IMG/VR virus record: IMGVR_UViG_2923146907_000004
Reading direction: 5' to 3' (one strand)
Source of the DNA: an uncultured virus (IMG/VR IMGVR_UViG_2923146907_000004)
Taxonomy: Duplodnaviria > Heunggongvirae > Uroviricota > Caudoviricetes
DNA: 64,000 nt
The notes under the pieces were generated by a model. The model searched no databases, was not told where the DNA came from, and worked only from the letters and a program-made list of their open reading frames with translations. Numbering within the stretch: the stretch's first letter is position 1; each line of letters begins with the position of its first letter. Position numbers and translations under genes: made by a program. Shown here one piece after another: positions 19,844-49,136 of the stretch.

Positions 19844-20215
19844 TCAGGAAACAGCAGTGCAGTTGCGCAGCAGCACCGGCGTGGCCTGACCTTCTAGCCA
19901 GATCACCGCCATGCCGGAGGCGGAAACTTTGGCTTGAGTGAGCGTTCTGGTGCGGATGGGGATGGAGTCGCGGAGCGGACGGTACTCAACGGCCACCTGG
20001 GCCGGGTGCGTGCGATTCCACTCTTCAACCAGGTCTTTGGGTGAGGCGGGCCGGACGGCGCCAACCCGGGCGTAGATCTCGGCGCGATGAATGGCCATCG
20101 CTTCCGGAGCAACGATTCCGAGGCGGATCTGGCCGCCTCTGTTCTCGACGACGGTCACGGTGATGTCGTCGCCAATGTGCAGGGTTTCGCCGACTCGGCG
20201 AGTGAGGATCAGCAT
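19844..20215 (-). CDS. csrA: CsrA/RsmA-family RNA-binding protein with C-terminal extra domain
   Basis: [30 protein letters not shown]...IHRAEIY. Confidence 0.9.
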
Positions 20216-28496: not shown

Positions 28497-28505
28497 GGAC
28501 ACGAC

Positions 28506-30827: not shown

Positions 30828-30865
30828 CGTAGCGAAGTTCGAACCAACCACACGAGGAGCAACAT

Positions 30866-32044: not shown

Positions 32045-32088
32045 CACACCTCCGCTACAACTCGCCAACCTGAAACCCTACCGGGCCA

Positions 32089-32130: not shown

Positions 32131-32228
32131 GCCGCCCAAGCCAAGGCGTCTCCGAACGCCGGCGAGACGCGGAGTAATCCGCATTGCTGATGACCCTTGC
32201 GGCCACGGCGATATGTGGCGGGATAGGC

Positions 32229-33320
32229 ATGAAAAAAGACGAGCTTTTCCAAGAGATAGACGGCGGACGGCCGACACCTGAACAGGCTGCCAGGATGATT
32301 GAACTGGCAATGGGCGATACCAGCAATTTCATGCTGGACAGCGACGAGCCCAACGTCGCAGCCGATGCGGGTGACGGCGATGCTGGCGAGGCCAGTGCCG
32401 ATGCCGCCGATCAGGCAGACAACACCGAACAGAACACCGACGCGCAGCAGGGCGCGGGTGACGCCGGCGCTTCGGCTGGTGGCGAGCAACAGGGCAAGAC
32501 GCCCGACGCCAAAGAGCTAAACGCCGAGAACGCCGTGATCCTGGCCAAGGACGGCAAGCACACCATCGGCTACGAGAAGCTGGTGGAAGCGAGACAGGGA
32601 GAACAGCACTGGAAGGCCCAAGCCCAGGCCGCGCAGGCAGAGCTACAACGCCTGCGGGATGAGGCAGCAGCGCGCGCCACGGCAGGCGAGGCCCCGACGT
32701 CGCAGGACAACCAACTGGCGGCGGCTCAGGCTGCCATGGATCAGGGGGTTGACCCTGCGATCTTCGGTGACTTCAGCGAGGAAGCGCTGGCCGCGGGCAT
32801 CCAGAAGCTGATCGACGCGAAGGTGGAAGCGCGCGTGAGCGCACTCGTGGACCAGAAGCTGGCACCGATCCAGAAGAAGGAAGCCGAGAGCGCCGCGAGC
32901 GCCCACCTGAATGCGATCTACGAGGCCCATCCGGACGCCGACTCCATTGCGGAGAGCAAGGAGTTCGGGGACTGGGTGGCGTCCCGTCCGGCATATGAGC
33001 GCGCGAGCATCGCCAAGGTGCTGGAAGACGGCACCGCGGCCGATGTCATCGAACTGTTCGGTTCGTTCAAGTCCGCCACCGGAAACGCTCAGCAGTCGCA
33101 GCAGCAGCCGAACGCGCAAGACGCGAAGGCTGCGGCCCAGGCTGCCATCAACAAAGCCAAGACCGAACCGCCGGCCAGTCTCTCGGATATCCCGGGCGGC
33201 AAGCCTCCGGCTGGCAACCGATTCGAGGCCATTGCCGCAATGGATCCGGCATCCATGTCGGACGCCCTGCGCGGCATGAGCCCCGATCAGGTCGAGGCAT
33301 TCCTGAACCGGAACATGTAA
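32229..33320 (+). CDS. Capsid scaffolding protein
   Basis: Acidic, Ala-rich coiled coil directly before the capsid gene. Confidence 0.75.
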   Translation: MKKDELFQEIDGGRPTPEQAARMIELAMGDTSNFMLDSDEPNVAADAGDGDAGEASADAADQADNTEQNTDAQQGAGDAGASAGGEQQGKTPDAKELNAENAVILAKDGKHTIGYEKLVEARQGEQHWKAQAQAAQAELQRLRDEAAARATAGEAPTSQDNQLAAAQAAMDQGVDPAIFGDFSEEALAAGIQKLIDAKVEARVSALVDQKLAPIQKKEAESAASAHLNAIYEAHPDADSIAESKEFGDWVASRPAYERASIAKVLEDGTAADVIELFGSFKSATGNAQQSQQQPNAQDAKAAAQAAINKAKTEPPASLSDIPGGKPPAGNRFEAIAAMDPASMSDALRGMSPDQVEAFLNRNM

Positions 33321-33332
33321 GGGAGCTACCCC

Positions 33333-34625
33333 ATGACCGCAAGCAAAACCACCATGCGTTACGGTGATCCGAACGCGATGATCCAACAGGCCGCCGGCTT
33401 GTTCGCGCTCTGCCAGGGCCGCAACTCGACCCTGAACCGCCTGACCGGCAAGATGCCGAGCGGCACCAGCGACGCCGAGAAAAAGACCAAGGGCCAGTCG
33501 AGCCTGGAACTTCCCATCGTCCAGGCACAGGATCTGGGCCGCAACAAGGGCGACGAGGTGCGTTTCCACTTCGTGCAGCCGGCGAACGCCTTCCCGATCA
33601 TGGGTAGCGAGTACGCCGAGGGCAAGGGCACTGGCCTGAAGATCGGCAGCGACCAACTGCGCGTCAACCAGGCCCGCTTCCCGGTGGACCTGGGCGATGT
33701 GATGTCGCAGATTCGCAACCCCTACGACCTGCGCCGCCTCGGCCGTCCGAAGGCGAAGTGGTTCATGGACGCCTACCTGGACCAGTCCATGCTGGTTCAC
33801 CTGGCCGGCGCCCGTGGTAACCACTACAACAAGGAGTGGTGCCTCCCGCTGGAGACGCATCCGAAGCTGGCTGACATGCTGGTCAACCGCGTCAAGGCGC
33901 CGACCAAGAACCGTCACTTCGTGGCCAGCGCCGATGCCATCACTGGCGTTGCGCCGAATGCGGGGGAGTACAACATCACCACCGCCGACGTGCTGGACGT
34001 GGATGTGGTCGACTCCATCGCCACCTACATGGACCAGATCGAGCTGCCGCCGCCGCCCGTGAAGTTCGAGGGCGACGAGGCTGCTGAGGATTCGCCGATC
34101 CGCGTCCTGCTGTGCTCGCCGGCCCAGTACAACAGCTTCGCCAAGCAGGAGAAGTTCCGTAGTTGGCAGGCTGCTGCACTGGCGCGCGCGTCGAACGCCA
34201 AGCAGCACCCGATCTTCCGCGTCGATGCGGGCCTGTGGTCCAACACCCTCATCATCAAGATGCCGAAGCCGATCCGCTTCTACGCGGGCGACACCATCAA
34301 GTACTGCGCCGCGTACAACTCGGAAGCCGAGTCGAGCGCCGTGGTGCCGGATAGCTTCGGCAATCAGTACGCGGTGGACCGCGCCCTGCTGCTGGGCGGC
34401 CAGGCTCTGGCGCAAGCCTGGGCGGCATCCGAGCACTCCGGCATGCCGTTCTTCTGGTCCGAGAAGGACATGGACCACGGCGACAAGCTGGAACTGCTGA
34501 TCGGCGCGATCCTCGGCTGCTCCAAGATTCGTTTCGCCGTCGAGGCGACCAATGGCTTGGAGTACACCGACCACGGCGTGATGGCGATCGACACCGCCGT
34601 CAAGATCATCGGCCCCCGCAAGTAA
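33333..34625 (+). CDS. Major capsid protein (N4-gp56-like)
   Basis: DL...GDEV.F, EG.G, YDLR, RALLLGGQAL, DHGV..ID. Confidence 0.88.
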   Translation: MTASKTTMRYGDPNAMIQQAAGLFALCQGRNSTLNRLTGKMPSGTSDAEKKTKGQSSLELPIVQAQDLGRNKGDEVRFHFVQPANAFPIMGSEYAEGKGTGLKIGSDQLRVNQARFPVDLGDVMSQIRNPYDLRRLGRPKAKWFMDAYLDQSMLVHLAGARGNHYNKEWCLPLETHPKLADMLVNRVKAPTKNRHFVASADAITGVAPNAGEYNITTADVLDVDVVDSIATYMDQIELPPPPVKFEGDEAAEDSPIRVLLCSPAQYNSFAKQEKFRSWQAAALARASNAKQHPIFRVDAGLWSNTLIIKMPKPIRFYAGDTIKYCAAYNSEAESSAVVPDSFGNQYAVDRALLLGGQALAQAWAASEHSGMPFFWSEKDMDHGDKLELLIGAILGCSKIRFAVEATNGLEYTDHGVMAIDTAVKIIGPRK

Positions 34626-34683
34626 GCGACAAGGGTCGGTGATCCCGGCCCTTTCCTTCGTCCAGATTGAAAGGAGGCCCATT

Positions 34684-35163
34684 ATGGCCCAGTACAAGAC
34701 CATCCCGCTCGGCGGCCAGTTCGGCGGTTTCACGCCGTATGGCAACCTGACCACCCTGCGTTATCAGCTCGCGACCAACGCGGCCGGCGTTCTGCTCAAC
34801 AGCAATGCCGCCGCCGCGCTGGCGGTTGGCGATGTCGTGGCGTTCGAGTTCCCGTTGCCCGCCGGCTTCGTCGCCGAAGACCTGCAACTGGTGATTTCCG
34901 ACCACTTCGGTGCCGGCGTGACCGCTGACGTGGGCTTTGCCTACGCCGACGGCGTGGACGACGCGACCTATCCGCAGGACGCCGCGTATTTCGGCGCTGG
35001 CCTGCTGCTGTCGGCCGCTGCGCGCCTGCGCACCAGTTCCAGCAAGGCGCTGTTCGCGCTGCCCAAGGACGCCAACCTGGTTATCACCATCAAAGGCGCT
35101 GCCGTCGCGGAGGCGGGCAAGCTCCAGGTGATCGTCCACGGCGAGCGCCTCGGCGCAGTCTAA
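34684..35163 (+). CDS. Virion protein (decoration-like)
   Basis: Strong AGGAGG RBS after capsid; beta-rich. Confidence 0.7.
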   Translation: MAQYKTIPLGGQFGGFTPYGNLTTLRYQLATNAAGVLLNSNAAAALAVGDVVAFEFPLPAGFVAEDLQLVISDHFGAGVTADVGFAYADGVDDATYPQDAAYFGAGLLLSAAARLRTSSSKALFALPKDANLVITIKGAAVAEAGKLQVIVHGERLGAV

Positions 35164-35227
35164 GCGCCGCCGCCCTACGAAGGGCCGGCCCGTGCTGGCC
35201 CTTCTGTCACGCAGGAGTAGGACATTC

Positions 35228-36100
35228 ATGAAACCCATCATCATCGCCACCATCGCCCACGCGATCAATTCCGCCTACTGCCTCGCCATCGGCGACAAGG
35301 TGGCGCCACCGTTCGCCGAGTGCCCGGAAGACATGCAGCGCGGCATCCTGGCCGGCGTGCAACTCCACCTGGACAACCCAGACACCACCCCCGAGCAGTC
35401 CCATGAGTCCTGGCTGGCGGACAAGCTGGCCAACGGCTGGGTCCATGGCGATGTCAAGGACTTCGAGGCGAAGACGCACCCGTGCTGCGTTCCCTACGCC
35501 GAGTTGCCCGAGTCGCAGAAGGTCAAGGACTATCTGTTCCGCGCCGTGGTTCATGCACTCAAGGACATCCCGGACGCTGGGAGCCAGGACGCCGACGCGC
35601 GCGTGGCTGAGTTGCAAGACCAACTCAACGAGGTGCTAGGCAAGAATGCGGCCCTGGTGGCGCAGATGGCGAGCGACGGCGTGCCCATGCTGGATAACGG
35701 CGTGCCCATCAAGTACATCGGCCCGCGGGAAAGCTTCACCGACCGCCTGTATGGCTCCGGGCTGATGTTCACCCAAGGGCAGGTGCGTAGCGTGCCCGGC
35801 GACCTGGCGCGTCGATTCCTCAACCATCGCGACCTGTTCGAGCGCTCCACCGGCCCCGCGCCGGCCGGCGACGACACCAAGCAGGTGATCGCGCAGGCTC
35901 AGCAGGCCCAGCAGGAGCGCGCTCGCAAGGAGGAAGACCTATCGGCCCTGCACCGGGAGGTGGACAACTTCGCCGACTTCACCAGCCTGGCGGCATTCGC
36001 CAAGGACCGCTACGGACTGAACCTGGTCAAGCAGCACGGCTTGGCGCGCTCCCGTGATGCCGTCCACGCGCGCATCGACCAGTTCGGTGGCGCGGTATGA
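35228..36100 (+). CDS. RyR-domain phage protein
   Basis: HESW..K..GWVHG..KD...KTHPC.VPY.ELP..QK.KD. Confidence 0.8.
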   Translation: MKPIIIATIAHAINSAYCLAIGDKVAPPFAECPEDMQRGILAGVQLHLDNPDTTPEQSHESWLADKLANGWVHGDVKDFEAKTHPCCVPYAELPESQKVKDYLFRAVVHALKDIPDAGSQDADARVAELQDQLNEVLGKNAALVAQMASDGVPMLDNGVPIKYIGPRESFTDRLYGSGLMFTQGQVRSVPGDLARRFLNHRDLFERSTGPAPAGDDTKQVIAQAQQAQQERARKEEDLSALHREVDNFADFTSLAAFAKDRYGLNLVKQHGLARSRDAVHARIDQFGGAV

Positions 36101-36774
36101 CGCTGGCGGACCTGATCCGCCGAGTTCGCACGGACGCGAACGACATGGTGGAGCCGTATTTCTGGTCGGACCAGGACGTGGCCGACTGGCTCAACGACGC
36201 AGTGCGCGAAGCCGCCGTGCGCGGCAGGCTGATCCACGAGAGCCAGGCCGACGCCGTGTGCCGCACCGAGGTGGTCGCCGGAACTGCCGTCTACCAGTTG
36301 CATGCGTCGCTATACGAACTGTCGCACCTGGGCTTCTACCCGGCCGATATGTCGCGCCCGACCATGCCGGTGCTGAAGTCGGCCGAGGTGCTGGACGTGG
36401 AGCTGCCGGAATGGCGCGCATGCACCGGCAAGCCGCTGTACGCCATCCAGGGCGACACTTCGCTGCGCCTGGTGCCAACCCCCGACCGGGCTGGCATTCT
36501 GCGCGTGGAGGGCTACCGCACGCCCCTGGCTGACATGGCGCTGGCCGACAAGGACACCGCGCAGCCGGAGATTCACGCCGAGCACCACCGGCATCTGGTC
36601 CAGTGGGCGCTGCATCGCGGCTTCAGCATCCCCGACATGGAGTCGTTCGATCCGAACCGCGCCGCGCTGGCCGAAGCCGCTTTCACGGCCTACTTCGGCG
36701 AGCGCCCCGACTCCGACCTGCGGCGCATCACCCGTGAGGATGTTCCTCACCATGTAGAGGCATTCTGGCCATGA
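36097..36774 (+). CDS. Head-tail adaptor-like protein
   Basis: MTLADLIRRVR..D...WSD....WLNDA.RE. Confidence 0.7.
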   Translation: MTLADLIRRVRTDANDMVEPYFWSDQDVADWLNDAVREAAVRGRLIHESQADAVCRTEVVAGTAVYQLHASLYELSHLGFYPADMSRPTMPVLKSAEVLDVELPEWRACTGKPLYAIQGDTSLRLVPTPDRAGILRVEGYRTPLADMALADKDTAQPEIHAEHHRHLVQWALHRGFSIPDMESFDPNRAALAEAAFTAYFGERPDSDLRRITREDVPHHVEAFWP

Positions 36775-36977
36775 GCAAGAAGATGAGCGTGGACCTGAAG
36801 GTCGGAGAGGTACTGCTGATCGATGGTACTGCCATCCGCCTGGAAAAGAAGTCCGGGCAGGTGGCGCGCCTGCAGATTTCGGCCGACGAAGGCACCGTTA
36901 TTCAAAACCCCGCAGCAGCGCGCAGGAGTGCGCTCCAAGACCTGGAGCACACCCCTGATGGCAAATACCCTCTATGA
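36771..36977 (+). CDS. Small protein with CsrA-like beta pattern
   Basis: VDLKVGEVLLIDG..IRLEKKSGQVARLQISA; ATGA coupling. Confidence 0.65.
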   Translation: MSKKMSVDLKVGEVLLIDGTAIRLEKKSGQVARLQISADEGTVIQNPAAARRSALQDLEHTPDGKYPL

Positions 36978-37365
36978 CTATGCCCGCCAGCGCTTCCTGG
37001 AGGGCCAGTTCAACTGGATGACCGACACGATCAAGGTGATCCTGGTCGATACCGGCGCCTACACGCCGCAGACTGCGATCCACCAGTACCTGTCGGATAT
37101 CCCGTCGTCGTCCCGGATCGCTGGCCCGGTCACTCTTACCGCGAAGACCACCACTGGCGGCGCCGCCGACGGTGCGGATGTGACGTTCACCAGTGTGTCC
37201 GGCGCGAGCATCGAGGCAATCATCATCTACAAGGACACCGGTACCGAGTCCACCAGCCCGCTGATTGCATTCATCGACACGGCTACCGGCCTGCCGATCA
37301 CCCCCAACGGCGGCGACATCATCGTCACCTGGGATAACGGCACCAACAAAATCTTCAAGGTCTGA
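36958..37365 (+). CDS. Virion structural protein
   Basis: MANTLYD..DTIKV.LVD..GLPITPNGGDI. Confidence 0.75.
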   Translation: MANTLYDYARQRFLEGQFNWMTDTIKVILVDTGAYTPQTAIHQYLSDIPSSSRIAGPVTLTAKTTTGGAADGADVTFTSVSGASIEAIIIYKDTGTESTSPLIAFIDTATGLPITPNGGDIIVTWDNGTNKIFKV

Positions 37366-37388
37366 GCGCCTGCGCGCAGGAGTGCGAA

Positions 37389-37814
37389 ATGCAAGGGCAT
37401 CAACACCCGCACGAGAAGAATGCCGACTGTCACTGCGTGGCATGCCGGCCGCTTGAACGCCCCTGTGATTGTGAGGGCTGCATGAGGCTGATGAGTGGCT
37501 CGGGCAAGCCGCCAGCGCAGGGTATCGGTGTCAAGGGTATCGAGCCCAGGCCCATTGAACTGACGCCGAGCCAGGAAATGTACGTCAACTGGAAGGCTGT
37601 AGGCGCCTTGCCTCCGTTCCAGATGTTCGTTCACGAGCAGGCTCCATGTCCGCCCGACCGCTGCCAGCAGCAGTGGGCTATCGACTACGGTGTGCGCTAC
37701 GGCGCCCAGGTCGGAGACAGGGTGCTGCTGGAGCGCTATGCCCAGTGGCACCAGGCGAAAGGCTACTGGCCAGACGAAACGATCCTCGGTCAACCGGTTG
37801 AAGGAGCGAATTAA
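37389..37814 (+). CDS. Phage hypothetical protein
   Basis: AGGAG RBS; Cys/His-rich N-terminus; start uncertain. Confidence 0.6.
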   Translation: MQGHQHPHEKNADCHCVACRPLERPCDCEGCMRLMSGSGKPPAQGIGVKGIEPRPIELTPSQEMYVNWKAVGALPPFQMFVHEQAPCPPDRCQQQWAIDYGVRYGAQVGDRVLLERYAQWHQAKGYWPDETILGQPVEGAN

Positions 37815-38671
37815 TGGCCGACACCATCGACCTGGACGGCGAAAAATTCGTCTCTCCATCATTCGTCACCAGTGCGACATCGCTCGACGACATCTATACC
37901 GCCTGGGTGGCCGACTTCCAAGGCTCAACGACTGCCTATAACCCTAGCTGGCCGAGCACCGATGATAGTGCGACGCTGCTACCAATCCCGCCGTTGTGGA
38001 CCGGCGGGGCCGATAGGTTGGTTGTTTCAACCGAGTGCGGTGTGGAGATTGTCCCCTACCAGTTCACCTCGGCCAGTACGCACTACTCACAGGCGATCGC
38101 AGGAGTTAGCCGGTACTACTCGATCAACTGCGGGCTGCGCCTGGCGATTATCTTCCACCCGACTGGTGTCGACTCAGGTATTACCAGCTTTTCGGGCAAC
38201 TATAACGCCGACCTGGCGCTATTTCGCGGCACGCATAACCGATCCAGTGAAAACGTCCAATTCGTGGCGCGTGTCGTTCCGGGCAGGCAAATTGATGTGG
38301 CCATCAAGAACACCGCCCAAACTGCTGGACTCCCCATCAAGCTGGTGGTCCTCAACGGCACCACTGTGGTGTCTTCCACCGACCTGACTACGATCGTTCA
38401 GGGTGGTGTCACACTGGTGACATGCTCCATCTACGGTGGAACCGTCTCGGGCACCGTCGTGGACCAGGCTGGCCAGCCTGCTACCCGCATCGTCCATGTT
38501 CACGAGCGCGAAACAGGGTCGGTGATCGGTAGAGGACGCAGCGACTCATCAGGTCTGTTCGAAATTCCGGTCATCGCGAAGGTGGGTACCACCATGTACG
38601 TAGTCGGCCTGGACGATGAGAACTCGCCGCTGATCAACGCTGTGATCGCCGATCGCATCGTGCTGGAGTAG
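37814..38671 (+). CDS. Putative receptor-binding / fibre-associated protein
   Basis: Lower GC; C-terminal beta-sandwich GTV..R.V.V..R.TG..SD..G.F..VIADR. Confidence 0.6.
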   Translation: MADTIDLDGEKFVSPSFVTSATSLDDIYTAWVADFQGSTTAYNPSWPSTDDSATLLPIPPLWTGGADRLVVSTECGVEIVPYQFTSASTHYSQAIAGVSRYYSINCGLRLAIIFHPTGVDSGITSFSGNYNADLALFRGTHNRSSENVQFVARVVPGRQIDVAIKNTAQTAGLPIKLVVLNGTTVVSSTDLTTIVQGGVTLVTCSIYGGTVSGTVVDQAGQPATRIVHVHERETGSVIGRGRSDSSGLFEIPVIAKVGTTMYVVGLDDENSPLINAVIADRIVLE

Positions 38672-38673
38672 CT

Positions 38674-41637
38674 ATGACCACGGGCGTAGAGCTGCGTTTT
38701 GACGCAGTACCCAGCGGCTACGTCCCCTCCAGCAGTCGCAACGTCACGCTGGGTGGCGGCCCGCCGGCGAACCTTCCCGAAGGAACCATCGGAGCTTGGG
38801 GCATTCAGCCACCGCTGCTCTCGCGCGATGCCCGGGTAGTGCGGACAATCCTTCCGGACCCGCACGCATCGGCGGATCTCGACTTCTCTACCGTTGACCC
38901 CGGCTACGTGCCGCCAGCGTCCAATGCTGTGCTGCTTCAGTGGGGTGAGTTGCCGCCGGTAGAGGGCCAAACGGTTTTCCCGGGCGGATTCAGCGATTCC
39001 ATGGTACCGCCACCGGCGATCCGTACTCAGTATCGCTTTGTGTTGCCTGTAGGATCGTCGCACCAAGTGTTCGGCGCCGCCAAGGCTTGGAAGTACAGCA
39101 CGTTCGTTTCGGCCTACGGCTTCAATTCGAACGTCATCGGATCCCACAACGCACAGAACAAGCACCGAACGGTTCAGCCGACCGGATTTGTCGCCTACCA
39201 AAGCGGGCAGGCGAACATCATCAACCGAAACCGCTATGTGGCGGCCGGCAACATTGCGCCGCCGCCGTGGGGCGCGAATCCCACGGTTTGGCTGTACACC
39301 CGCTATCTGAAGCCTGGCGGCCTACTGGCGACCGCGATCCCGGATGTCCACCGCATCAGCCACGAACGCCAGTTCGTGCAGCTCAATGCTGGTGTTCCAG
39401 CGCCAGGCATGGGGACGGCATGGGTCAGTCAGGGAACGCGCGTTCTGGAGCCCATTGGCACGTTTCTGGATGCCGTGGCCAGACCTATGGTCGGCGGCAC
39501 GCGCTTCTTGGAGCCGCCAGGCTGGGATTCCTCGGCATTCGGCACGCGGATCATTCCCGAGTCGCAGACGGTCGCGCCTCAAGGCTTCGCCGAGTTGTGG
39601 GGGCAGCAGGCGATCAACAACTGGCTCACCTTTGCCGAGCCGGCCGGATTCCAGAGCACCGTCCAGGAAGAATACCGCTGGGGCCGCGCAGACGTGTGGA
39701 ACCTGCGCCAGTACGTGGTCCAGGAGTACGACCCGGACAGCGAGTTGAACCCGCCACCCTGGTCGCAGTGGACGCTGGTGGAGAACCGAAACCGTCAAGT
39801 GGGCACCATCGGCGTGCCTTCGCCGCCGGCCGGCTTCCCGCAGATCGACAACAATGCCAGGCCGATCTTGCCAGGCGGCGTGGCGCCGCCGCAGATCACC
39901 ACTGCAGCCATGATTGCCTACGGCCGCCGTTACCTGCCGCTGGAAGGCATCGAACCGCCGCCGATCCTGAATTGGCATGCCGTCTACAACGGCGCGAGGG
40001 TGTTGGTGCCGACCGGGAATGCTCAAAGCGCTTTCGGTGTGGCGAGACTGGAGAACACGCGGCGTTACTTCGACCGCATCGGCGGCTTCGACTCGGTGGA
40101 TATCGGCATCGCGTTCATCGATTTCGCCATTCGCGGTATCAGCATCGAGCCGCGCTACAGCATCGAGCCGCCGGATATCAAGTTGCCCGAGGTCAAGCTG
40201 TACACGCGCTATGTCGATCCGGTAAGCAACGACATGCTGAACATGGGCCTGGCGGCTCTGTCGATCCACTTCAACGCGATCGGGCCGAGGTGGGCGCACA
40301 AAGACCTGTTCGGCGATCCGCGCATCCACAACGTGACGCCGGAGGTCGCGACCTTCGGGGCGAACGCCGAGGAATTCGGTTCGGCCTTCGTGCGCCTGCA
40401 ATGGCGTCCGGTGGCGCCGGACGGCAGTAACATGCAGTTGTTCGGCCAGGCAAAGATCGCCGACCGCAAGCAGACCATCACGGTTCCAGGCACCAACCTG
40501 CTCAGGATGGGCGACAAGCTGGTGGTGACCAAGACCGGCGCGCCGCCGTACTCGCCGCAGAACATCATGGTTGATCAGGCGGTTAACACCGGAGCGGTGC
40601 TCGGAAAGCCCGGTCTGAATCAGTACGTCCTGTACGCGACAGGCATCCGGGCGCCGGACATCGAGGAGCCGACGGTGCGCATCATGGGCGTGAACATCGA
40701 CGCCGGCATCAAGGTGGACGGCTACGGCCTGCCAGCCGTGAGCTTGAAGCTGCGCAAGCTGACGGTGGACGAATGGCCCGACGCTGAAGTGTTCCAGCCA
40801 TCCAAGCCGCGTCTCACGCCGCACACCATCTGGGCGGTGAAGGAGGCACCCGAGCAGGCCAAGCAGAACCATCCAGCCGGTAACCTGCACTATGTAGGGG
40901 AAACGCTGGTTTATCCGCCGGGTGAGCGATTCGGCTCGGCGCGCATCAGCACCTACCTGGGCGTCCTCAAGCCGTCGCCGCTGGGCGACGTGTCGAAGAT
41001 CGGTGAGCACGCGATCTATCTGAAGCGTCGCTACCTAGAGCCGCGGGGTCTGCAGGCATATCGCATGGGGTGGGCGATCGTGGGTGACGGTACACAGTTC
41101 GTGACGCAGTTCGCCGGCGCCGACTCGATGCAGCTCGGCGCGACATCCGTAGCCCGTGGCCCTTACTACGGACCGCAGACTGTGAAGCCTGTCGGCCTGC
41201 CATCGCCCGGTCCTGGGGCGGTGACCTGGGTGTCTCTGCTGAACCGTACCTTCCAACTGGCCGGCTTCGACGCCATGCACATGGGCAGCTCGCGCGGCGA
41301 AGGGCCGTACCAGTGGCAGTCACTGCATGTTGGGCCGCCGATGCCGACCATTCCAAGCGGTACCGACACATCAGTGTTCGGCACAGCCTGGGTTTCGCTG
41401 CGGGTACGAGGGGTTGAGCCGGACGGCTGGGAGTCGTTCATCTGCGAATACGACCCGTCGCACTTCGCGGATCGCATGCGAGTCCGCAACGTCTTCATCC
41501 CACCGGGTCCAAATGCCCAGTCCGTGGCACCTGTAGGGTTGGATTCAGTGGATGTGGGCGTGCCCAATGTGCGGCCAGGTGTCCACTACATCCGCCCTGA
41601 CGGCAACGCCGATCAGTACCGCAAAGGAGCCTTCTGA
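38674..41637 (+). CDS. Large virion/tail structural protein
   Basis: 987 aa with repeated P.G....FG beta units. Confidence 0.7.
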   Translation: MTTGVELRFDAVPSGYVPSSSRNVTLGGGPPANLPEGTIGAWGIQPPLLSRDARVVRTILPDPHASADLDFSTVDPGYVPPASNAVLLQWGELPPVEGQTVFPGGFSDSMVPPPAIRTQYRFVLPVGSSHQVFGAAKAWKYSTFVSAYGFNSNVIGSHNAQNKHRTVQPTGFVAYQSGQANIINRNRYVAAGNIAPPPWGANPTVWLYTRYLKPGGLLATAIPDVHRISHERQFVQLNAGVPAPGMGTAWVSQGTRVLEPIGTFLDAVARPMVGGTRFLEPPGWDSSAFGTRIIPESQTVAPQGFAELWGQQAINNWLTFAEPAGFQSTVQEEYRWGRADVWNLRQYVVQEYDPDSELNPPPWSQWTLVENRNRQVGTIGVPSPPAGFPQIDNNARPILPGGVAPPQITTAAMIAYGRRYLPLEGIEPPPILNWHAVYNGARVLVPTGNAQSAFGVARLENTRRYFDRIGGFDSVDIGIAFIDFAIRGISIEPRYSIEPPDIKLPEVKLYTRYVDPVSNDMLNMGLAALSIHFNAIGPRWAHKDLFGDPRIHNVTPEVATFGANAEEFGSAFVRLQWRPVAPDGSNMQLFGQAKIADRKQTITVPGTNLLRMGDKLVVTKTGAPPYSPQNIMVDQAVNTGAVLGKPGLNQYVLYATGIRAPDIEEPTVRIMGVNIDAGIKVDGYGLPAVSLKLRKLTVDEWPDAEVFQPSKPRLTPHTIWAVKEAPEQAKQNHPAGNLHYVGETLVYPPGERFGSARISTYLGVLKPSPLGDVSKIGEHAIYLKRRYLEPRGLQAYRMGWAIVGDGTQFVTQFAGADSMQLGATSVARGPYYGPQTVKPVGLPSPGPGAVTWVSLLNRTFQLAGFDAMHMGSSRGEGPYQWQSLHVGPPMPTIPSGTDTSVFGTAWVSLRVRGVEPDGWESFICEYDPSHFADRMRVRNVFIPPGPNAQSVAPVGLDSVDVGVPNVRPGVHYIRPDGNADQYRKGAF

Positions 41638-42827
41638 TGGCCACGACTTCCCTGGTGCCGCTGGCCGGCATCAACAACGTCGCCGAAGATGCCGCGCTGC
41701 AACGCGGCGGCGAGAGCCCGAGGCTCTATGTACGTGACGCGGTGAACATAGACCTGTCGCCGGCCGGCAAGGCGCAACTGCGGGCCTCTGCGCGCCAGGT
41801 CACGGACCAGCCGTTCCGCCAACTCTGGCAAAGCCCACTGCACGGCGACGCCTTCGGAGCCCTGGGCGACCAGTGGGGAAAGGTCGATCCGCATTCATGG
41901 ACGTTCGAGCCGCTCGCACAGATCGGCGAAGGGGACCTGTCCCACGAGGTGCTGAACAATCGGGTGTGCGTCGCCGGAACGGCGGGCATCTTCACCTACG
42001 ATGGCGCGCAGGCTGAGCGCCTGACGCTGGACACCCCGGCGCCGCCGCTGCTGGTGGCAGGCGCCGGATCGTTGAGTCAAGGCACCTACGGCGCGGCTGT
42101 GGCGTGGCTGCGCGGCCCCCAGGAGTCGGCGCCGTCGCTGATCGCCTTCGCGGACGTGACCGATGCCGGCGCGCTGGAAGTCACCTTTCCGCTGTGCTTG
42201 GATGCCAGCGTGACCGGCGCGCGCCTCTACCTGACGCGAGCGAATGGTGGCGAGCTGCTGTTGGCCGGCGACTACCCGCTGGGCGCGGCCACGCTCATCC
42301 TGCCGACGCTACCGGAGCTGGGTCGACCGGCGCAGTTCCGCCACCTGTCGCCCATGCCCACCGGCAAGTACCTGGCGTACTGGCGCGGGCGCCTGCTGAC
42401 CGCGCGCGCTAACGTGCTGCGATTCTCCGAAGCGCTGACGTACCACCTGCATGATGAGCGTTACGGGTTCGTGCAGATGCCCCAGCGCATTACCTTCCTG
42501 CAGCCGGTGGACGGCGGGATCTGGGTGGGGCAGGTTGATCACGTCGCCTTTCTCGATGGTATCGACCCGGCAAGCCTGAGCGTGTCGCGCCGTGCATCGC
42601 GGGCTCCGGTGCCTGGTAGTGCGATCCTGGTCCCCGCCGAGGCGGTAGGCACCAACGCATCACCGGATGGCTCGCCGGTCGCCGTGTGGCTGGCGGAGAA
42701 CGGCTACGTCATGGGCACCAGCAGTGGCGCCATCGCCGAAGTTCATGCGGGCGTGCTCACCGGTATCACCGGCCGTGCCGGTACCTCTGTAGTGTTCGAC
42801 CGCCGTCTGCTGACGGCTGTAAGCTGA
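41637..42827 (+). CDS. Virion structural protein
   Basis: TGATG coupling; beta-propeller-like pattern. Confidence 0.7.
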   Translation: MATTSLVPLAGINNVAEDAALQRGGESPRLYVRDAVNIDLSPAGKAQLRASARQVTDQPFRQLWQSPLHGDAFGALGDQWGKVDPHSWTFEPLAQIGEGDLSHEVLNNRVCVAGTAGIFTYDGAQAERLTLDTPAPPLLVAGAGSLSQGTYGAAVAWLRGPQESAPSLIAFADVTDAGALEVTFPLCLDASVTGARLYLTRANGGELLLAGDYPLGAATLILPTLPELGRPAQFRHLSPMPTGKYLAYWRGRLLTARANVLRFSEALTYHLHDERYGFVQMPQRITFLQPVDGGIWVGQVDHVAFLDGIDPASLSVSRRASRAPVPGSAILVPAEAVGTNASPDGSPVAVWLAENGYVMGTSSGAIAEVHAGVLTGITGRAGTSVVFDRRLLTAVS

Positions 42828-42894
42828 ATCACCCCGAATATCGGGCCTTCAATCGCTGCGCAGGAGTGCGGCATGGGACTTCGGAGAGAACCCT

Positions 42895-43485
42895 ATGCAA
42901 CGCATTAGCAGCGCTCTGCGCAAAGAACTGGCCGCCGACCTGGCCACTGGTAGCTTCGACATCACCGAAAACGGCATTGCCTTCCCGCGGCTCAGCGTAC
43001 TGGCCGGTGGCGAATACTTCGGCCGCATCAACAGCGGCGAGTGGGAGAAGGAAGGTGACAACCTGATCCCCACCGAGGGCCTGGCGCACATCCTCAACAT
43101 TGCGCTGGGCAGCAAGCCCAAGGTGTCGTATTTCCTGGCCCTGTTCGCCGGGACGGCAGCACCTGCTGCCAACTGGACCGCCGCCAACTTCGCCGCGGTG
43201 GCCTCGGAGATCACCAGCATGACCGAGGGTTACACCAGCGCTACCCGCCCAGCCTGGACGCCGACCGATACCGCTACCGGTTCCATCGACAACATGAACG
43301 CGGTCGCGACCGTAACCATCGCCACGGCGTCGCAACTCAACGTCAACGGCGCCGCGTTGCTGACCAACAGCACCAAGGGTGGCACCACGGGTGCGCTGGT
43401 ATCGGCGTCGAAGTACGCGGCGACTCGTGTGTTCCAGAACGGCGACACCTACGATATCGGCTACCGGCTGAACCTGACTGTCTAA
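42895..43485 (+). CDS. Virion structural protein
   Basis: GGAG RBS; Thr/Ala-rich. Confidence 0.7.
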   Translation: MQRISSALRKELAADLATGSFDITENGIAFPRLSVLAGGEYFGRINSGEWEKEGDNLIPTEGLAHILNIALGSKPKVSYFLALFAGTAAPAANWTAANFAAVASEITSMTEGYTSATRPAWTPTDTATGSIDNMNAVATVTIATASQLNVNGAALLTNSTKGGTTGALVSASKYAATRVFQNGDTYDIGYRLNLTV

Positions 43486-43489
43486 GCCG

Positions 43490-46087
43490 ATGTATTCGCC
43501 GCGCCCCTACGGACGTTTCGCGGAAGACGCGGAGCTTTCCGCCGACGATGCCGCCGCTGTCGAGCGGCTGGCCAGGAACCTGACGAACTTCAAGCAGGCG
43601 TCTGACCTCGCCAACCTGAAGCGCGTTGCGGGCCTGCCCAGCGGCCGGCAGGCGGTGGCCATCGACATGGGCGGAGTGTTTCGCATCCTGGTGCTCGAGC
43701 AGCATGAGCTTCCGCAATTCCGTTTCGACGGGGTGGCACAGACCAACATCCCCATGCTGTTCTCCGGCGTCATCACCCGCGCCCAGGTGCTGACCGATGG
43801 GCAGGGCGTTGGCATAAGGTTGACCGAGCAGGCCCGGCGCCGGCTGGTGGCCTACGACCCGAAAGCGGCGCTTCCGCCGAAGGACGTGGCGTTGCAACGC
43901 TTCGTCATCAAGTACGAACCTCGTTTCCAATACTTCGAGCCGCGCGAGCAGGGCATCTACACATTCACTCAGTACGTCAAGCAGCGCCCGACCTGGTACA
44001 GCGGCGCCATGGCCGAGGTCATGCAGGTGGCTGGCGGATATGGGCGGCAGGTCATGGCCGAACTGCCAGAGGACGACCTTGAGCGCGCAAGGATGCTGAT
44101 TCCTGAGCGCTACATGCACCGCATCCGCCAGGAAGTCGGCAACGTTCGGCTGCCGGCCTACACAGGCTTTCCGGACGAGCAAGGCCAGTTCAAATGTGAC
44201 TACCTCGCCAGCCGCTGCAACGCCGTCGCTTTCGATGCCGGCAACAGTCCGTGGTTGCTGCAGATCAATGCGCGGGGCGTCTACGCGATGCCGCTTCCTG
44301 TGGTGCCGGCCACCACCACCGAGGCTTTCCGTGACTACGTGCTGGATGTTGGTGACGACGAGCTGCTGAAGCTTCTGGACCGCTTCGGCGGCATGCCTAC
44401 TGGTGAGGGGTTCCCACAGCCGGAACAGGAGTTCGAGGCGTGGCGCCGGGCCGGCGTCATCGTCAAGGTCTGCGACACCGCCGACTTCTACAATTTCGAG
44501 GCCATGTACGCGGCGTGTGGCTGGGCGGTGAACAGCCGAGGCACCGAGGGCTTCAACACCTGCTGGACCTATGACGACGCCGGCCTGATGCAGGTCCATG
44601 CGTACAAGATGAGTCTGTCGCTGGCCCCGGCGGAGAACCAGGGGCGACTGAAGAACACCTGGAATTTCGATGATCCAGACGATGCAGCGAAACTCAACGC
44701 CTACCTGGCCCAGGTCTATGGCGCGCTGACCGATGGCACCGCCAGAGAACTGGCCATCAAGTATAAGATTCGGCGGGTGCCGGCTGGTGAGATTCTCTCG
44801 CGCGCCTCTTCGGCCAGCGGCCCGGATCTGGACTACTGGGACAGCCTGGAACTACCTCCCATCGCCACCCACCAGGGCCGAGTGTCGCGCGTCGCCAGTG
44901 GCCCTTTCTACTGGCCGTCCAAGGTCTTGAAGTCCTGCACCCGCCTGAAGTTCCCCGAACTGACGGGGCAGGGGTGCGAGTCCTTCCCGCACATCTCGCC
45001 CGACTATTCCGGCGGCGCAGTGAAGTGCGACACCATAGTCTTCGGCTGCTATGTCGAGGACCAATTGCGTGTCATCAAGTATTTCTACGACGAACGCAAG
45101 TTCCAGCAGGAAACGACAAGTACGTTCGAGCAGTACATGATCGTCGGCCAGTGGGAGAAGACCGAGACCTTCGGCCTCAGCGGGCTGATGGGGTTCTTCT
45201 ACACGACCGACTTCGACGATCGGCAGGAGCAGCCGGCGGTAACGGTCCATACCAACATCGTCGGCACCGATATGGGCTACGGCAACCCGGCTTACTCCAC
45301 TCCGCCGACGCTTTGGTGCGTCGGCGGCGTGAGCCGGTCCAGGTATTACATGCACCGCACCACGGTAGACACTACCGAGACGTTTACCCTGGACGTGGCG
45401 GCGCTGGTGCCGGTGTTCGAGCGCGATTGCATGCTCTACGCCTACCAGGACCATACCGGGGGACGCAGTTCCCACGAGGAAACGACGCAGGGCTCTGTGC
45501 CTGATCCCACGTCCTACGAACTCTGGTGCTACGACGACATCTGGCACTGGATGGGGCAGACGCGGAACGGGAACCGGGGCGACCCGCCATCCAAGGATGG
45601 GGTGCCTGTCTATGTCGACACGCTGGTCTACAGCCCCACCGAAATCAGCGACTTCGCCGAGAGTGGCAACTGGCTGAACCTGCCACCTGGCGGGTTTCTG
45701 GATGTCACGGGCATCTGTGGGCCGTACACCTACCGCAACTCCGTCCACAACGCCAACGGCGTCATCATCGGCGGCGAGGCGCCAGGCTTCGATCCGTACC
45801 GGAAGGACACCCAGTACCCCAACGAGAGTAGCGGGCGCCTGAGTGTGTGCCTGTCCGTGGCCGGCGCTGTTCAGGTCAACAAGGACATGCCGCACTCGTG
45901 GTACTGGGGCTTCTCGCCCGAGAACGACTTTTACTTCTACCGCGACGCCGTGCATGTCGCCATCGGCGACGCCCGGTACGCCAGCATCTACGAGACGGGC
46001 CAGGATGGACTGCGCCGCCGCTGGGGGCATACCGCACTTGCCGATCACAAGGCGGCCCACCACTTCATAGGGGTTATCAATGAGTGA
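43490..46087 (+). CDS. Virion structural protein
   Basis: 865-aa ORF tiling the late operon. Confidence 0.7.
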   Translation: MYSPRPYGRFAEDAELSADDAAAVERLARNLTNFKQASDLANLKRVAGLPSGRQAVAIDMGGVFRILVLEQHELPQFRFDGVAQTNIPMLFSGVITRAQVLTDGQGVGIRLTEQARRRLVAYDPKAALPPKDVALQRFVIKYEPRFQYFEPREQGIYTFTQYVKQRPTWYSGAMAEVMQVAGGYGRQVMAELPEDDLERARMLIPERYMHRIRQEVGNVRLPAYTGFPDEQGQFKCDYLASRCNAVAFDAGNSPWLLQINARGVYAMPLPVVPATTTEAFRDYVLDVGDDELLKLLDRFGGMPTGEGFPQPEQEFEAWRRAGVIVKVCDTADFYNFEAMYAACGWAVNSRGTEGFNTCWTYDDAGLMQVHAYKMSLSLAPAENQGRLKNTWNFDDPDDAAKLNAYLAQVYGALTDGTARELAIKYKIRRVPAGEILSRASSASGPDLDYWDSLELPPIATHQGRVSRVASGPFYWPSKVLKSCTRLKFPELTGQGCESFPHISPDYSGGAVKCDTIVFGCYVEDQLRVIKYFYDERKFQQETTSTFEQYMIVGQWEKTETFGLSGLMGFFYTTDFDDRQEQPAVTVHTNIVGTDMGYGNPAYSTPPTLWCVGGVSRSRYYMHRTTVDTTETFTLDVAALVPVFERDCMLYAYQDHTGGRSSHEETTQGSVPDPTSYELWCYDDIWHWMGQTRNGNRGDPPSKDGVPVYVDTLVYSPTEISDFAESGNWLNLPPGGFLDVTGICGPYTYRNSVHNANGVIIGGEAPGFDPYRKDTQYPNESSGRLSVCLSVAGAVQVNKDMPHSWYWGFSPENDFYFYRDAVHVAIGDARYASIYETGQDGLRRRWGHTALADHKAAHHFIGVINE

Positions 46088-47243: not shown

Positions 47244-49136
47244 ATGGGTATCGCACCGGATAGCATCCTTGGCGTAGCGGTGGACACCGTTACGGACAAG
47301 ATGAACGATCTTGAGGCGCTGGGCAGCAAGTACAGCGCAGAACTGTCCGCCGCGCTGGCGAAGATCGGCGACATCACGGTGGCTGACGTGCCGGCACCGA
47401 CGCGGCCGGATGCGCCTATCGCTTCGCCGCCGCCCGTCAACCTGGGCGAGCAGCCGACCTACAACCCGTCTTCGCTGGTCAAGCCGGAAGCCCCTGGCGG
47501 CCTGAACATCGACGACCTGCTGGCCGACCTGGACGTGGGCGACATGGACGACCTGCCCGACGCGCCGACCATGATCCCGATCAACATCCCGGACGCGCCG
47601 AGCATGACGGCCATCCCGGTGCCGGAACGCCCGGACATCGACACCACGGTGGAGATTCCCGACGCGCCGCAGATCGCCATGCCGGACATGGAAGCGCTGG
47701 AACAGATCCGCCTGCCGGAATTCGTGTTCCCCGAGTTGCCCACGTTCGATGCCACGCCGCCGGACGCGAGCGGGATCACGGTGCCCAACGTCTTCATCAA
47801 CTGGCTGGAACCGGAGTACCAGTCCGAGGTGCTGGACGAGTTGCAAGCGAAGATCAAGGAACTGATGGCGGGCGGCACCGGCCTGCCTGTACCCATCGAG
47901 CAGGCGCTGTTCGCCCGCTCCCGCGAGCGCGACAGCGGTGAAACCACCCGCGCCGTGCAGGAGGCGGTCGATACTTGGGCCGCCCGCAATTTCTCCATGC
48001 CGCCGGGGATGCTCGCCAGGCAGGTAGATGTGGTGCGCGAGCAAGGCCGGCTGAAGGCGGCCGAACTGAACCGCGACATCCTGGTGCAAGCGGCCACCTG
48101 GGAAATCGAGAACCTGCGCTTCGCCGTGCAGCAGGGCCTGGCCCTCGAGCAGTTGACCGAGAACATGCACCAGAACATGGCGCAGCGCCTGTTCGAGGTC
48201 GCCCGCTTCCACGCGGAAAGCCAGATCAACGTGTTCAACGCGCAGATCAGCCTGTTCAACGCGCAGAACGCGGCCTTCGAGACGCTGGCGCAGGTCTACC
48301 GCACCAAGCTGGATGCGGCTATCTCCAAGCTGACTGCCTACAAGACCGCCGTGGAGGGCCAGGTGGCGCTGGGGCAAATCAACCAGCAGCGCGTCGAGGT
48401 GTTCAAGGCCAAGCTGGACGCCGTACAGTCGAGCGTCGAGGTCTACAAGGCGCTGATGCAGGGGGCATCCGTGCGCGCCGAGACGATCAAGAACCAGTTC
48501 GACGCCTACCGCGCAGACGTGCAGGCGTATGCCGAGCAGATCGGCGCCGAGAAGGTCAAGTTCGACGCCTACGAGGCCCGTGTCAAGGGCGAGTCGGCCA
48601 AGGCGGACGTGCTCGATGCGCAGGCCCGCGCCTACGCTTCGACCATTCAGGGGTTGGCGAACAAGGCCGATGTCAAGGTCAAGGGCGCGCAGATCAAGAT
48701 GGAGGCGGCGCGCACCAAGGTGTCGAAGTTCTTGGCGGACGTGGACGCCTACAAGGCCACCCTGCAGGCCAACCTGAGCGAGGTGCAGTACAACACGTCG
48801 GTGTTTCAGGCCCAGGTAGAAGCCTGGCGCGCAGCGGCCAGTGCCAACGTGGCCGACGCCGAGATGCAATCGCGCTTTGCCGACATGAACAGCCGGACCA
48901 ACATCGCATACGCGGAAATGCAGATCAGCGAGTACACCGCAAAGATGCAGAATGCCGTACAGCAGGCGCAGATCGCCCTGGAGGCAGCCAAGGCCTTGGG
49001 GCAGTACACCGCCCAGCTCGCGGCCGGCGCTATGTCGGCGGCACATGTATCGGCCAGCATCAGTGGCTCAGGAAGTGCTAGTACAGGTGAAACAAAATCC
49101 GAAACAACTTCGACTTCTTATAATTATAATTATTGA
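47244..49136 (+). CDS. Coiled-coil virion/ejection protein
   Basis: Pro/Asp-rich N-terminus, long helical C-terminus. Confidence 0.7.
   Translation: MGIAPDSILGVAVDTVTDKMNDLEALGSKYSAELSAALAKIGDITVADVPAPTRPDAPIASPPPVNLGEQPTYNPSSLVKPEAPGGLNIDDLLADLDVGDMDDLPDAPTMIPINIPDAPSMTAIPVPERPDIDTTVEIPDAPQIAMPDMEALEQIRLPEFVFPELPTFDATPPDASGITVPNVFINWLEPEYQSEVLDELQAKIKELMAGGTGLPVPIEQALFARSRERDSGETTRAVQEAVDTWAARNFSMPPGMLARQVDVVREQGRLKAAELNRDILVQAATWEIENLRFAVQQGLALEQLTENMHQNMAQRLFEVARFHAESQINVFNAQISLFNAQNAAFETLAQVYRTKLDAAISKLTAYKTAVEGQVALGQINQQRVEVFKAKLDAVQSSVEVYKALMQGASVRAETIKNQFDAYRADVQAYAEQIGAEKVKFDAYEARVKGESAKADVLDAQARAYASTIQGLANKADVKVKGAQIKMEAARTKVSKFLADVDAYKATLQANLSEVQYNTSVFQAQVEAWRAAASANVADAEMQSRFADMNSRTNIAYAEMQISEYTAKMQNAVQQAQIALEAAKALGQYTAQLAAGAMSAAHVSASISGSGSASTGETKSETTSTSYNYNY

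Follow-up and report, generated by a model that had tools for sequence, protein, structure and literature searches.

A covarying RNA hairpin at virion-gene starts accompanies a diverged CsrA-like gene and points to a probable phage-owned translation switch

The window analysed here, the whole 64,000-nucleotide stretch of IMG/VR record IMGVR_UViG_2923146907_000004, is a Pseudomonas aeruginosa prophage of the F116 type. One hairpin type lies at the start of four of its virion-region genes. The underlying repeat, GCGCAGGAGTGCG, matched exactly at 36920, 37374 and 42858, always on the + strand and nowhere else in the window, compared to 0.009–0.017 copies expected under Markov models of order 1–4. 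With up to two mismatches allowed, 15 copies were found where 7.65 were expected (3 of 100 shuffles were as high); this excess is weak, and thus the repeat signal resides in the exact copies. A partial copy occupies 35209–35220, and relatives carry it at the corresponding gene. The three exact copies and the partial one near 35210 had been reported by a sequence-only reading and were recovered here. The sites fall into two settings. Class I hairpins stand 22–45 nt upstream of capsid or tail-appendage genes, and free RNA is computed to favour a longer stem that hides the ribosome site. In class II, the loop itself is the Shine-Dalgarno sequence (SD) or the AUG of the gene, which is a putative scaffold gene in many relatives, among others. 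The window holds two of each, class I at 36920 and 42858 and class II at 35210 and 37374. The features are as follows.

19844..20215, − strand: canonical CsrA fusion of the RsmM type in the early region, distinct from the 68-aa gene and weighed below as a rival binder
35205..35224, + strand: imperfect class II hairpin, loop = SD of ORF 35228
35228..36100, + strand: 290-aa RyR-domain gene (Pfam RyR, E 9e-11), predicted to be repressed (weakest site)
36771..36977, + strand: 68-aa divergent CsrA-fold protein (phrog_8397; profile and predicted fold), the proposed trans-acting regulator
36917..36934, + strand: class I hairpin of 7 pairs with AGGA loop, inside the regulator gene at its 3' end
36923..36957, + strand: alternative OFF stem, in which the hairpin loop and 3' arm pair with the SD (36944–36947) and spacer of ORF 36958
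36958..37365, + strand: target gene of 135 aa (phrog_644) for a tail-appendage-like virion protein; activation predicted
37373..37386, + strand: class II hairpin of 5 pairs, loop = SD of ORF 37389
37389..37814, + strand: target gene of 141 aa (phrog_11163, no annotated function); repression predicted
42855..42872, + strand: class I hairpin of 7 pairs, followed by a stem burying the SD and AUG of ORF 42895
42895..43485, + strand: 196-aa target gene (phrog_8123), predicted to be activated

All four window sites carry an AGGA loop. Neither the capsid gene nor the scaffold gene of the window has a hairpin site. Stems with AGGA loops had been proposed from the letters; the hairpins are present, with seven, seven and, at 37373–37386, only five pairs, but the AGGA loop holds in this genome only. 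At the position of 36917–36934, relatives have loops AUGA, AAGA and ACGA. The suggested overlap with the ribosome-binding site of ORF 37389 was correct, the loop at 37374 being its SD; in homologues of this site the loop is the SD in six cases and the AUG in one, and the AUG also occupies the loop in three further loci. The hairpin at 36917–36934 had been thought to compete with a GCTCCA/TGGAGC stem. That stem proved compatible with the four-pair core of the hairpin, but a longer competitor exists, CAGG-A-GUG / CAC-C-CCUG, which lengthens GCTCCA/TGGAGC as far as the AUG. The OFF stem of ORF 36958 reads CAGG/CCUG in the window and CAUG/CAUG in relatives. Once the hairpin was enforced, the computed opening energy of the ORF 36958 start dropped from 13.6 to 5.6 kcal/mol, and that of the ORF 42895 start from 6.3–8.1 to 4.7–4.8 kcal/mol. 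The 42855–42872 hairpin has 10 homologous class I sites, and the hairpin at 35205–35224, directly 3' of a G+C-rich stem, is kept in eight related loci. Among the target products, the model of the 135-aa protein matched the Bxb1 tail-tip chain 9d93_Ra (E 3e-5, 39% identity). The 196-aa protein might belong to a Gp80-like tail-fibre family, a lead from PF23140, found on 14% of the members of one cluster neighbouring its own. BLASTP showed no homology between these two proteins. The region is present in contigs of three RNA libraries, which records presence only; a single raw RIP-seq run gave 0 reads and is uninformative on the region.

The 68-aa protein is a member of phrog_8397 (E 3e-34) encoded in the virion module. 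A search against Pfam gave no match for it, and it is not among the 95 of 150 family members that match PF02599 at E≤0.1; the family profile matched RsmE (2jpp) at E 4e-7. The resemblance to CsrA that had been suspected from the beta pattern was confirmed by this profile and by a structure model of the monomer (pLDDT 83.5), whose top fold matches were all CsrA, RsmA or RsmE (1vpz: VIA-align Z 7.3, rmsd 2.5, 56 aligned; next unrelated row Z 2.6). The fold comprises five beta strands and a C-terminal helix. By analogy with the CsrA/Rsm family, whose members are strand-swapped homodimers with two RNA sites, the protein is probably a dimer. By the offsets of the profile and structure alignments, the RNA-contact residues T5, R6 and R44 of CsrA (PMC4005645, PMC3791407) correspond to D8, L9 and N46; across the family, the first position is D in 76%, the second L in 70% and the third R in only 27% of members, and a new near-invariant K-S-G turn is present. 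Judged from the residues, the loss of these contacts would fit an altered target. The lineage comprises at least 447 clusters, and the protein is already named 'CsrA-like' in RefSeq and so annotated in H66, F116 and 8P. A C-terminal 'AR.SA' was rejected as a protein motif: its middle residue (R, M, K or T) tracks the loop base, and its conservation follows the RNA motif and is absent as a conserved feature in the wider family. Matches to P0039 (659 aa), a chaperonin and L24 reflect chance similarity to a short peptide.

Over 36 diverged loci, the hairpin has a consensus stem of G-C, C-G, G·U and C-G pairs (RCGC/GUGY), conserved in sequence, and an A-N-G-A(N) loop, mostly of four bases, from which 4 of 36 loops depart (UGGAU in Skulduggery). 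Relatives show no constraint on the second loop base. GGA is present in 14 of the 36 primary loops and in 36 of 71 class I loops of a wider set; its absence from the other 22 primary loops rules it out as the conserved signal. Together with the finding that, among 27 loci bearing more than one site, 18 combine GGA and non-GGA loops, this fails to support the canonical loop-GGA recognition originally assumed. The outer pairs, which lie outside the search pattern, do covary in relatives: they are paired in 25, 33 and 29 of 36 loci (16, 21 and 19 expected), and the covariation in the RNA register was 0.45, a value reached by 0 of 500 shuffles. In the register of a DNA palindrome, 328 of 500 shuffles were as high; this lack of covariation rules that register out. 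At the gathering score of Rfam 15, the window matched three tRNAs only, and 10 relative loci gave nothing besides tRNAs and one DGR RNA; the hairpin is thus without a known Rfam family. Neither an Rfam match nor a hairpin array pointed to a sponge RNA of the CsrB/RsmY/RsmZ type in the window.

In most relatives, class I sites are intergenic, 16–111 nt past a stop codon and 22–45 nt before the AUG, and their target is the major capsid gene. In F116-like phages, the regulator gene lies downstream of the capsid gene and the sites mark tail-region genes. The idea that the circuit sets tail-protein stoichiometry is incomplete: the main class of sites looks activating rather than repressing, and tail genes are not the target in most relatives. 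The hairpin was disfavoured in the free RNA of 33 of 36 leaders; three leaders showed no switch behaviour in the computation. The median opening energy was 10.6 in free RNA, 5.7 with the hairpin and 7.2 with shuffled upstream sequence, only 15 of 36 leaders beating their shuffles at z>2. OFF duplexes reached −13.05 kcal/mol for cognate and −10.3 kcal/mol for cross-locus partners (median rank 7 of 36).

Gene and hairpin occur together. At 36 of 42 dereplicated gene-bearing loci, a hairpin was found at the next gene start. Among 72 gene-bearing loci, 30 of which were found via the hairpin motif itself, 95 of 133 sense-strand matches lay at gene starts (38 were unclassified) compared to 0 of 6 antisense matches. 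At 42 gene-free capsid loci, all from a single capsid clade and covered to at most 10 kb per side, 0 of 12 matches did so. The loci share descent, so these counts are not independent. A scan that started from the RNA placed the gene no more than 7 kb away in 50 of 60 well-paired gene-start rows; of 10 records inspected further, 6 carried it elsewhere. In four loci and in GP4, the regulator gene is relocated and the sites remain with the target genes. A matching hairpin of 11 pairs stands at a gene start of Vibrio phage 12A4, in which the gene was not detected. Host range here is based on named phage records. Phage 8P has an exact 12-mer at 46903 that is antisense inside an exonuclease gene, so isolated matches may be chance. 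That relatives have the hairpin almost only together with the diverged CsrA gene points, as far as genome comparison goes, to a phage-owned translation switch.

Because a CsrA fold, a conserved covarying RNA element and their joint travel coincide, the phage-specific translational circuit suggested by the sequence-only reading, stripped of its loop-GGA mode, is the best reading; we give such a phage-private regulon a probability of about 0.63. The late 68-aa protein, predicted to have a CsrA fold, would act as an RNA-binding dimer with an altered binding surface and, judging by co-occurrence, would recognise the RCGC/GUGY hairpin with its A-N-G-A(N) loop. The position of the hairpin would decide the outcome. 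In the OFF state computed for class I, loop and 3' arm fold back onto the SD, the spacer and often the AUG; capture of the small hairpin by the protein would free the start site and raise translation. At class II sites, where the loop is the SD or AUG, the bound protein would exclude ribosomes, so that class I binding should activate and class II binding should repress. As the late protein builds up, synthesis would shift in favour of virion proteins needed in many copies, at the expense of scaffold or accessory proteins, and capsid and tail messages would stay silent under leaky read-through transcription. Against this reading, PMC4005645 states that in the CsrA fold it is the protein backbone that reads the A(N)GGAX bases, and that these cannot be replaced; binding of an AUGA loop would therefore require a changed surface.

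It is unlikely, on the evidence at hand, that the protein binds the hairpin but only represses or stabilises the mRNA, the OFF stems being opened by ribosomes on the upstream gene, by temperature or by co-transcriptional folding. Class II sites do cover the SD or AUG as classical CsrA operators do, the 36920 site lies inside the regulator ORF so that translational coupling could open the stem, and the GCTCCA/TGGAGC stem persists in the minimum-energy fold with the four-pair core enforced. However, in most relatives the class I sites are intergenic and, at the distances given above from stop codon and AUG, too remote for coupling or direct occlusion, and the OFF pairing, which involves the loop and 3' arm directly, covaries.

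Less probable still is that a canonical CsrA, either host RsmA/RsmN or the early RsmM fusion, reads the hairpins via GGA and couples virion synthesis to the Gac/Rsm state of the host, with the 68-aa protein as modulator or heterodimer partner. The AGGA loop at all four window sites and the canonical CsrA fusion encoded in the window favour it, as do the Bcep22-type loops AGGAU and AGGAA, which fit A(N)GGAX minus the N. It is opposed by the 22 loops without GGA and by the weak binding of RsmA and RsmN to a GGA hairpin with a 4-nt loop (PMC3791407). Moreover, Bcep22, GP4, PEp14 and LASTA have the late gene only and 8P has no Pfam CsrA match, yet all carry the motif, and Burkholderia cepacia and cenocepacia have no chromosomal csrA (PMC7366521). 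Cross-talk with canonical CsrA proteins in P. aeruginosa is possible.

We consider it improbable that another late phage protein, such as free scaffold or capsid protein, binds the hairpin, with the CsrA-like gene merely linked or an assembly factor. The targets are assembly proteins whose ratio is important, PMC9144972 reports one peptide of the JC1 homologue in virions, and 12A4 has the hairpin without a detected gene; but the same capsid and scaffold module without the CsrA-like gene has no gene-start sites, and the gene co-occurs even kilobases away from the sites. It is hardly credible that the repeat serves as a signal in DNA or for transcription (as palindromic operator, late-promoter element, antitermination or processing site): GCGCA..TGCGC is a near palindrome and several capsid-leader copies lie, by eye, shortly 3' of −10-like sequences or stems, but only the G·U-containing RNA register covaries, the sites are fixed relative to the SD or AUG, and homologous genes switch between SD-in-loop and AUG-in-loop. 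Under the rules of a scan for sigma-70 promoters and terminators, 26000–44000 contained neither a promoter-like site nor a terminator on the + strand.

The regulon we favour resembles known systems in part. The 68-aa protein shares its fold with CsrA/RsmA/RsmE (PF02599; RsmE-hcnA, PDB 2jpp), and the operators are likewise small hairpins placed at translation starts, with a C-G closing pair and a purine-rich loop. Class II sites cover the SD as the hcnA site does. In contrast, the phage family has mostly replaced the T5/R6/R44 equivalents and gained the K-S-G turn, its hairpins lack the invariant A(N)GGA of CsrA targets and present a mostly four-base A-N-G-A(N) loop on a sequence-conserved stem, and a few phage targets replace a global regulon. 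Mu Com opens a stem and thereby activates the gene just downstream, whereas T4 RegA and P22 scaffold repress at start sites, the latter autoregulating. Their logic is similar and their folds are unrelated to CsrA; to our knowledge, none of the three activates and represses via one hairpin. A precedent for activation is ymdA of E. coli, where CsrA opens a hairpin that buries the SD (PMC7492729) and in which a CsrA site is partly sequestered, binding freeing the ribosome site; ymdA relies on two GGA sites and the host protein, the phage system on a single hairpin without GGA, a protein encoded by the phage and a two-state leader that is conserved. RsmM of F116/H66 is a CsrA-family protein from the same phage as the 68-aa protein (H66 and F116 orthologues of the early fusion are in Table 3 of PMC7366521). 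It is an early gene product 55% identical to E. coli CsrA, and is absent from other phages having the hairpin. The 19844–20215 fusion has the early position and 55–63% identity to E. coli CsrA that mark RsmM; the 68-aa gene is late, lacks such identity, and its product shows no BLASTP similarity to the fusion. The 'CsrA moron' of Bcep22, DC1, JC1, CSP3, GP4 and PEp14 (phrog_8397) belongs to the same family as the 68-aa protein. Available sections of PMC10269572 and PMC9144972 place it upstream of the major capsid gene and treat it as host-directed, of unknown benefit, naming no target.

A full-text literature search covering main articles found no paper on a CsrA-linked virion-gene hairpin, only descriptive papers, and an earlier mention is possible. 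The moron of Bcep22-, F116-, GP4- and PEp14-like phages has long been annotated without a target and is usually viewed as a means of host manipulation. The present evidence points instead to the phage's own virion messages; with the site named and the sign predicted gene by gene, the proposal is testable with a few reporters. More tentatively, and at somewhat less than even odds, the family may be a CsrA lineage with its own RNA code, orthogonal to host Rsm, in which one hairpin serves as a two-way switch (scaffold and accessory genes off; capsid, tail and lysis genes on), giving late timing and stoichiometry control in F116/Bcep22-like podoviruses; the AGGA loops of F116 might also admit RsmA/RsmM input. 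If the circuit is real, a CsrA fold would read a non-GGA loop, held impossible for the canonical fold by the RsmE structural paper, the scaffold-to-capsid ratio of these phages would have an explanation at the level of translation, and protein and hairpin would form a compact activator pair that works independently of host Csr.

The window holds an F116-like temperate phage (Hollowayvirus), integrated 3' of a tRNA cluster beside a folD-like gene. Its region 34800-43400 is covered to at least 80% by 34 of 36 matching phage records, mostly at 95-99% identity. The hairpins and the regulator gene lie in the virion module, 3' of the major capsid gene:

1134-1473, three tRNAs
1640, integrase-like ORF
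33333-34625, major capsid gene (PF13252)

Elsewhere, a 392-aa gene (30866-32044) between the portal and putative scaffold genes carries an N4 Gp49/Sf6 gp66 domain and exceeds its H66 counterpart in length. A lower-GC stretch at 49137-51800 (GC 0.58 in 48001-50000), which begins with an AT-rich run and separates the tail genes from a 3778-aa giant gene, may represent moron content.

The sequence-only reading had reported AGGA-loop hairpins at 36920, 37374 and 42858 and a partial copy near 35210, and all were recovered. GCGCAGGAGTGCG occurs there in three exact copies, all on the coding strand (about 0.01 expected), and in a fourth, imperfect copy at 35209. All four copies lie 7 to 38 nt 5' of a start codon (ORFs 35228, 36958, 37389 and 42895). 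The exact copies form hairpins of 7, 5 and 7 pairs, respectively, with the loop AGGA. The capsid and scaffold gene starts of the window have no hairpin site. The 135-aa product of ORF 36958 (phrog_644) resembles a Bxb1 tail-tip chain.

Relative loci were gathered around homologues (80 of 179 kept in one set) and supplemented with named records, yielding 71 distinct loci that were dereplicated to 42. A hairpin of the form RCGC-A[3-5 nt]-GYRY was located 22-45 nt 5' of the next start codon in 36 of these 42. Among the six exceptions, the hairpin of L038, L058 and L106 stands at the more distant capsid gene or ahead of an unusual start, and two other hairpin sites are present in L030. The remaining two, L054 and L083, are short, and sites do occur in their close relatives. 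The usual target is an N4-type major capsid gene; in F116-like phages it is the phrog_644 gene. The three outer pairs, for which the search pattern did not select, were paired in 25, 33 and 29 of the 36 loci (expected 16, 21 and 19). Covariation, which had been proposed as a check, was scored for the 28 sequences with a four-base loop, drawn from 25 loci and three sites of the window; longer loops were excluded. With C-G and G·U as closing pairs, the register reached 0.45, a value matched by none of 500 shuffles; the outer pairs covary. A DNA-palindrome register showed no covariation in the same sequences and was rejected. No Rfam family matched the hairpin; in one relative, Rfam identified a Phage_DGR RNA (L044:15701-15830), indicating a diversity-generating retroelement.

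The loops of the 36 loci were AUGA (13), AGGA (7), AGGAA (5), AAGA (2) and AGGAU (2), with single cases of AUGAC, ACGA, ACGAAA, AACA, AGCA, AUAU and AUCA. The proposed recognition of a loop GGA was not sustained, as GGA is present in just 14 of 36 loops and the second loop base varies within one genome in 19 of 27 multi-site loci. Judged from these loops, GGA is dispensable.

The hairpin occupies two kinds of position. In class I it lies upstream of the start and, when formed, is predicted to free a buried ribosome site. Computed folding gave a hairpin probability below 0.1 in free RNA for 33 of 36 leaders, because loop and 3' arm base-pair instead with the SD, the spacer and often the AUG. 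Opening the start region cost a median of 10.6 kcal/mol in free RNA, 5.7 once the hairpin was enforced and 7.2 when the upstream sequence was shuffled; the drop on enforcement is partly built in, and the real controls are the shuffle and a cross-locus test. In the former, 35 of 36 leaders exceeded their own shuffled mean, with z>2 in only 15; in the latter, cognate OFF duplexes averaged -13.05 versus -10.3 kcal/mol for mismatched loci. Leaders L028, L031 and L045 showed no switching. OFF pairing involves CAGG/CCUG in the window and CAUG/CAUG in relatives. Within the window, 36920 (13.6 to 5.6 kcal/mol with the hairpin enforced) and 42858 (6.3-8.1 to 4.7-4.8) belong to class I; PEp14 has a further class I site upstream of its endolysin gene. 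In Bcep22, GP4 and PEp14, sigma-70-like -35/-10 elements were noted by eye just 5' of the capsid-leader hairpin (L033 20195-20225, L034 20620-20640, L035 8150-8185); in these phages the hairpin may open a transcript of its own.

In class II, including the window sites 35210 and 37374, the loop coincides with the SD in 14 cases and with the AUG in 10 (L187, counted among the latter, is really class I; L112 is the opposite error). Ten such sites lie at a phrog_8246 gene, related to phrog_479 of the window, 5' of the regulator and capsid genes; the loop holds the AUG in eight and the SD in two. From its position and acidic composition, this gene is a putative scaffold gene. Homologues of ORF 37389 likewise alternate between SD and AUG in the loop.

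ORF 36771-36977 (plus strand), encoding the 68-aa protein, matched phrog_8397, 'CsrA-like regulator', the annotation also given to its counterparts in H66, F116 and 8P; no Pfam match was obtained. A profile search yielded 447 clusters at 50% identity, and the profile built from the best 150 of these matched RsmE (E 4e-7). The AlphaFold model (pLDDT 83.5) had CsrA, RsmA and RsmE chains as its top structural matches (Z 7.3, rmsd 2.5, 56 residues). Since profile and model agree, the CsrA fold suspected for this gene stands. Genes labelled 'CsrA' in Bcep22, DC1, CSP3, GP4 and PEp14 are weakly related. CsrA residues T5, R6 and R44, described as RNA contacts of RsmE complexes in PMC4005645 and PMC3791407, correspond by alignment offsets to D8, L9 and N46. 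In the best 150 of 447 clusters these columns hold D (76%), L (70%) and R (27%), and K27 (99%), S28 (88%), G29 (100%) and R33 (92%) are conserved. By this comparison, the RNA-binding face differs from that of CsrA. One family member, P0021 (106 aa), contains the divergent domain in two tandem copies and is possibly a single-chain dimer.

The 72 gene-positive loci (929 kb; 30 found via the motif itself) contained 133 sense matches, 95 at gene starts, and 6 antisense matches, none at starts; 42 gene-less clusters of related capsid loci (618 kb, from the best 80 of 587) contained 12 matches, none at a gene start. These counts overstate independence because the loci are related. An RNA-first scan (79 loci analysed) gave at least 77 gene-start matches; among the matches listed, 54 had the gene within 7 kb, as did 50 of 60 well-paired ones. 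Ten records were examined further: six carry the gene elsewhere, three gene-negatives are only 14-34% complete, and one complete record has just a weak 18-bit candidate. Where the regulator gene is relocated, the sites remain with their targets. CF418P1, D96a and VT2-Sakai have neither a CsrA-like gene nor the motif. Vibrio phage douglas 12A4 (L249:6170-6200) carries, before the gene 3' of capsid, a hairpin of 11 pairs that has the consensus core and an AAGA loop; no CsrA-like gene or OFF stem was detected there, and a terminator or an orphan site are candidates. Three prophages (L124:6980-7170, L169:3020-3210, L193:3280-3460) have two back-to-back hairpins in a divergent region, which precede a capsid gene and, on the opposite strand, an endolysin-like gene; two of these records contain a distant, far more diverged CsrA-like gene. 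L119 has two CsrA-like genes, before the capsid and phrog_644 genes (about 240 nt 5' of site 2482 and 170 nt 5' of site 7001), and at least four sites, a layout possibly midway between those of Bcep22 and F116.

The analysis shows the fold class, the conservation and covariation of the hairpin, the two positions it takes, its computed alternative folds and its co-occurrence with the gene; beyond that, we infer that the 68-aa protein would bind the hairpin, activating class I and repressing class II targets, a model to which we assign a probability of roughly 0.6. Activation has a precedent in E. coli ymdA (PMC7492729). The system would operate like a CsrA operator system, but it departs from one in the loop GGA and the contact residues. 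Two papers argue against a host Rsm protein as reader of the hairpin: PMC4005645 states that the canonical fold tolerates no base substitution in A(N)GGAX, and PMC3791407 observed that RsmA and RsmN bound a four-base-loop hairpin weakly. Given the strictness described in the former, a phage protein reading the hairpin must have an altered surface. The early gene 19844-20215 (minus strand) is a canonical CsrA fusion distinct from the 68-aa gene. It belongs to the RsmM type, which PMC7366521 lists for F116 and H66; its CsrA domain is joined to a 70-aa C-terminal domain (phrog_9165). No RsmM-like gene was found in the motif carriers Bcep22, GP4, PEp14, LASTA and 8P.

The gene label is known; in PMC9144972, PMC10269572 and PMC8450108, the passages on this family describe it as a moron with no known use. 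In the main texts of openly accessible papers, the original Bcep22 paper not among them, we found no description of the hairpin RNA or its targets. New here are four targets in the F116 form, the test of GGA dispensability, the negative control and a predicted class of repression by an SD or AUG in the loop.
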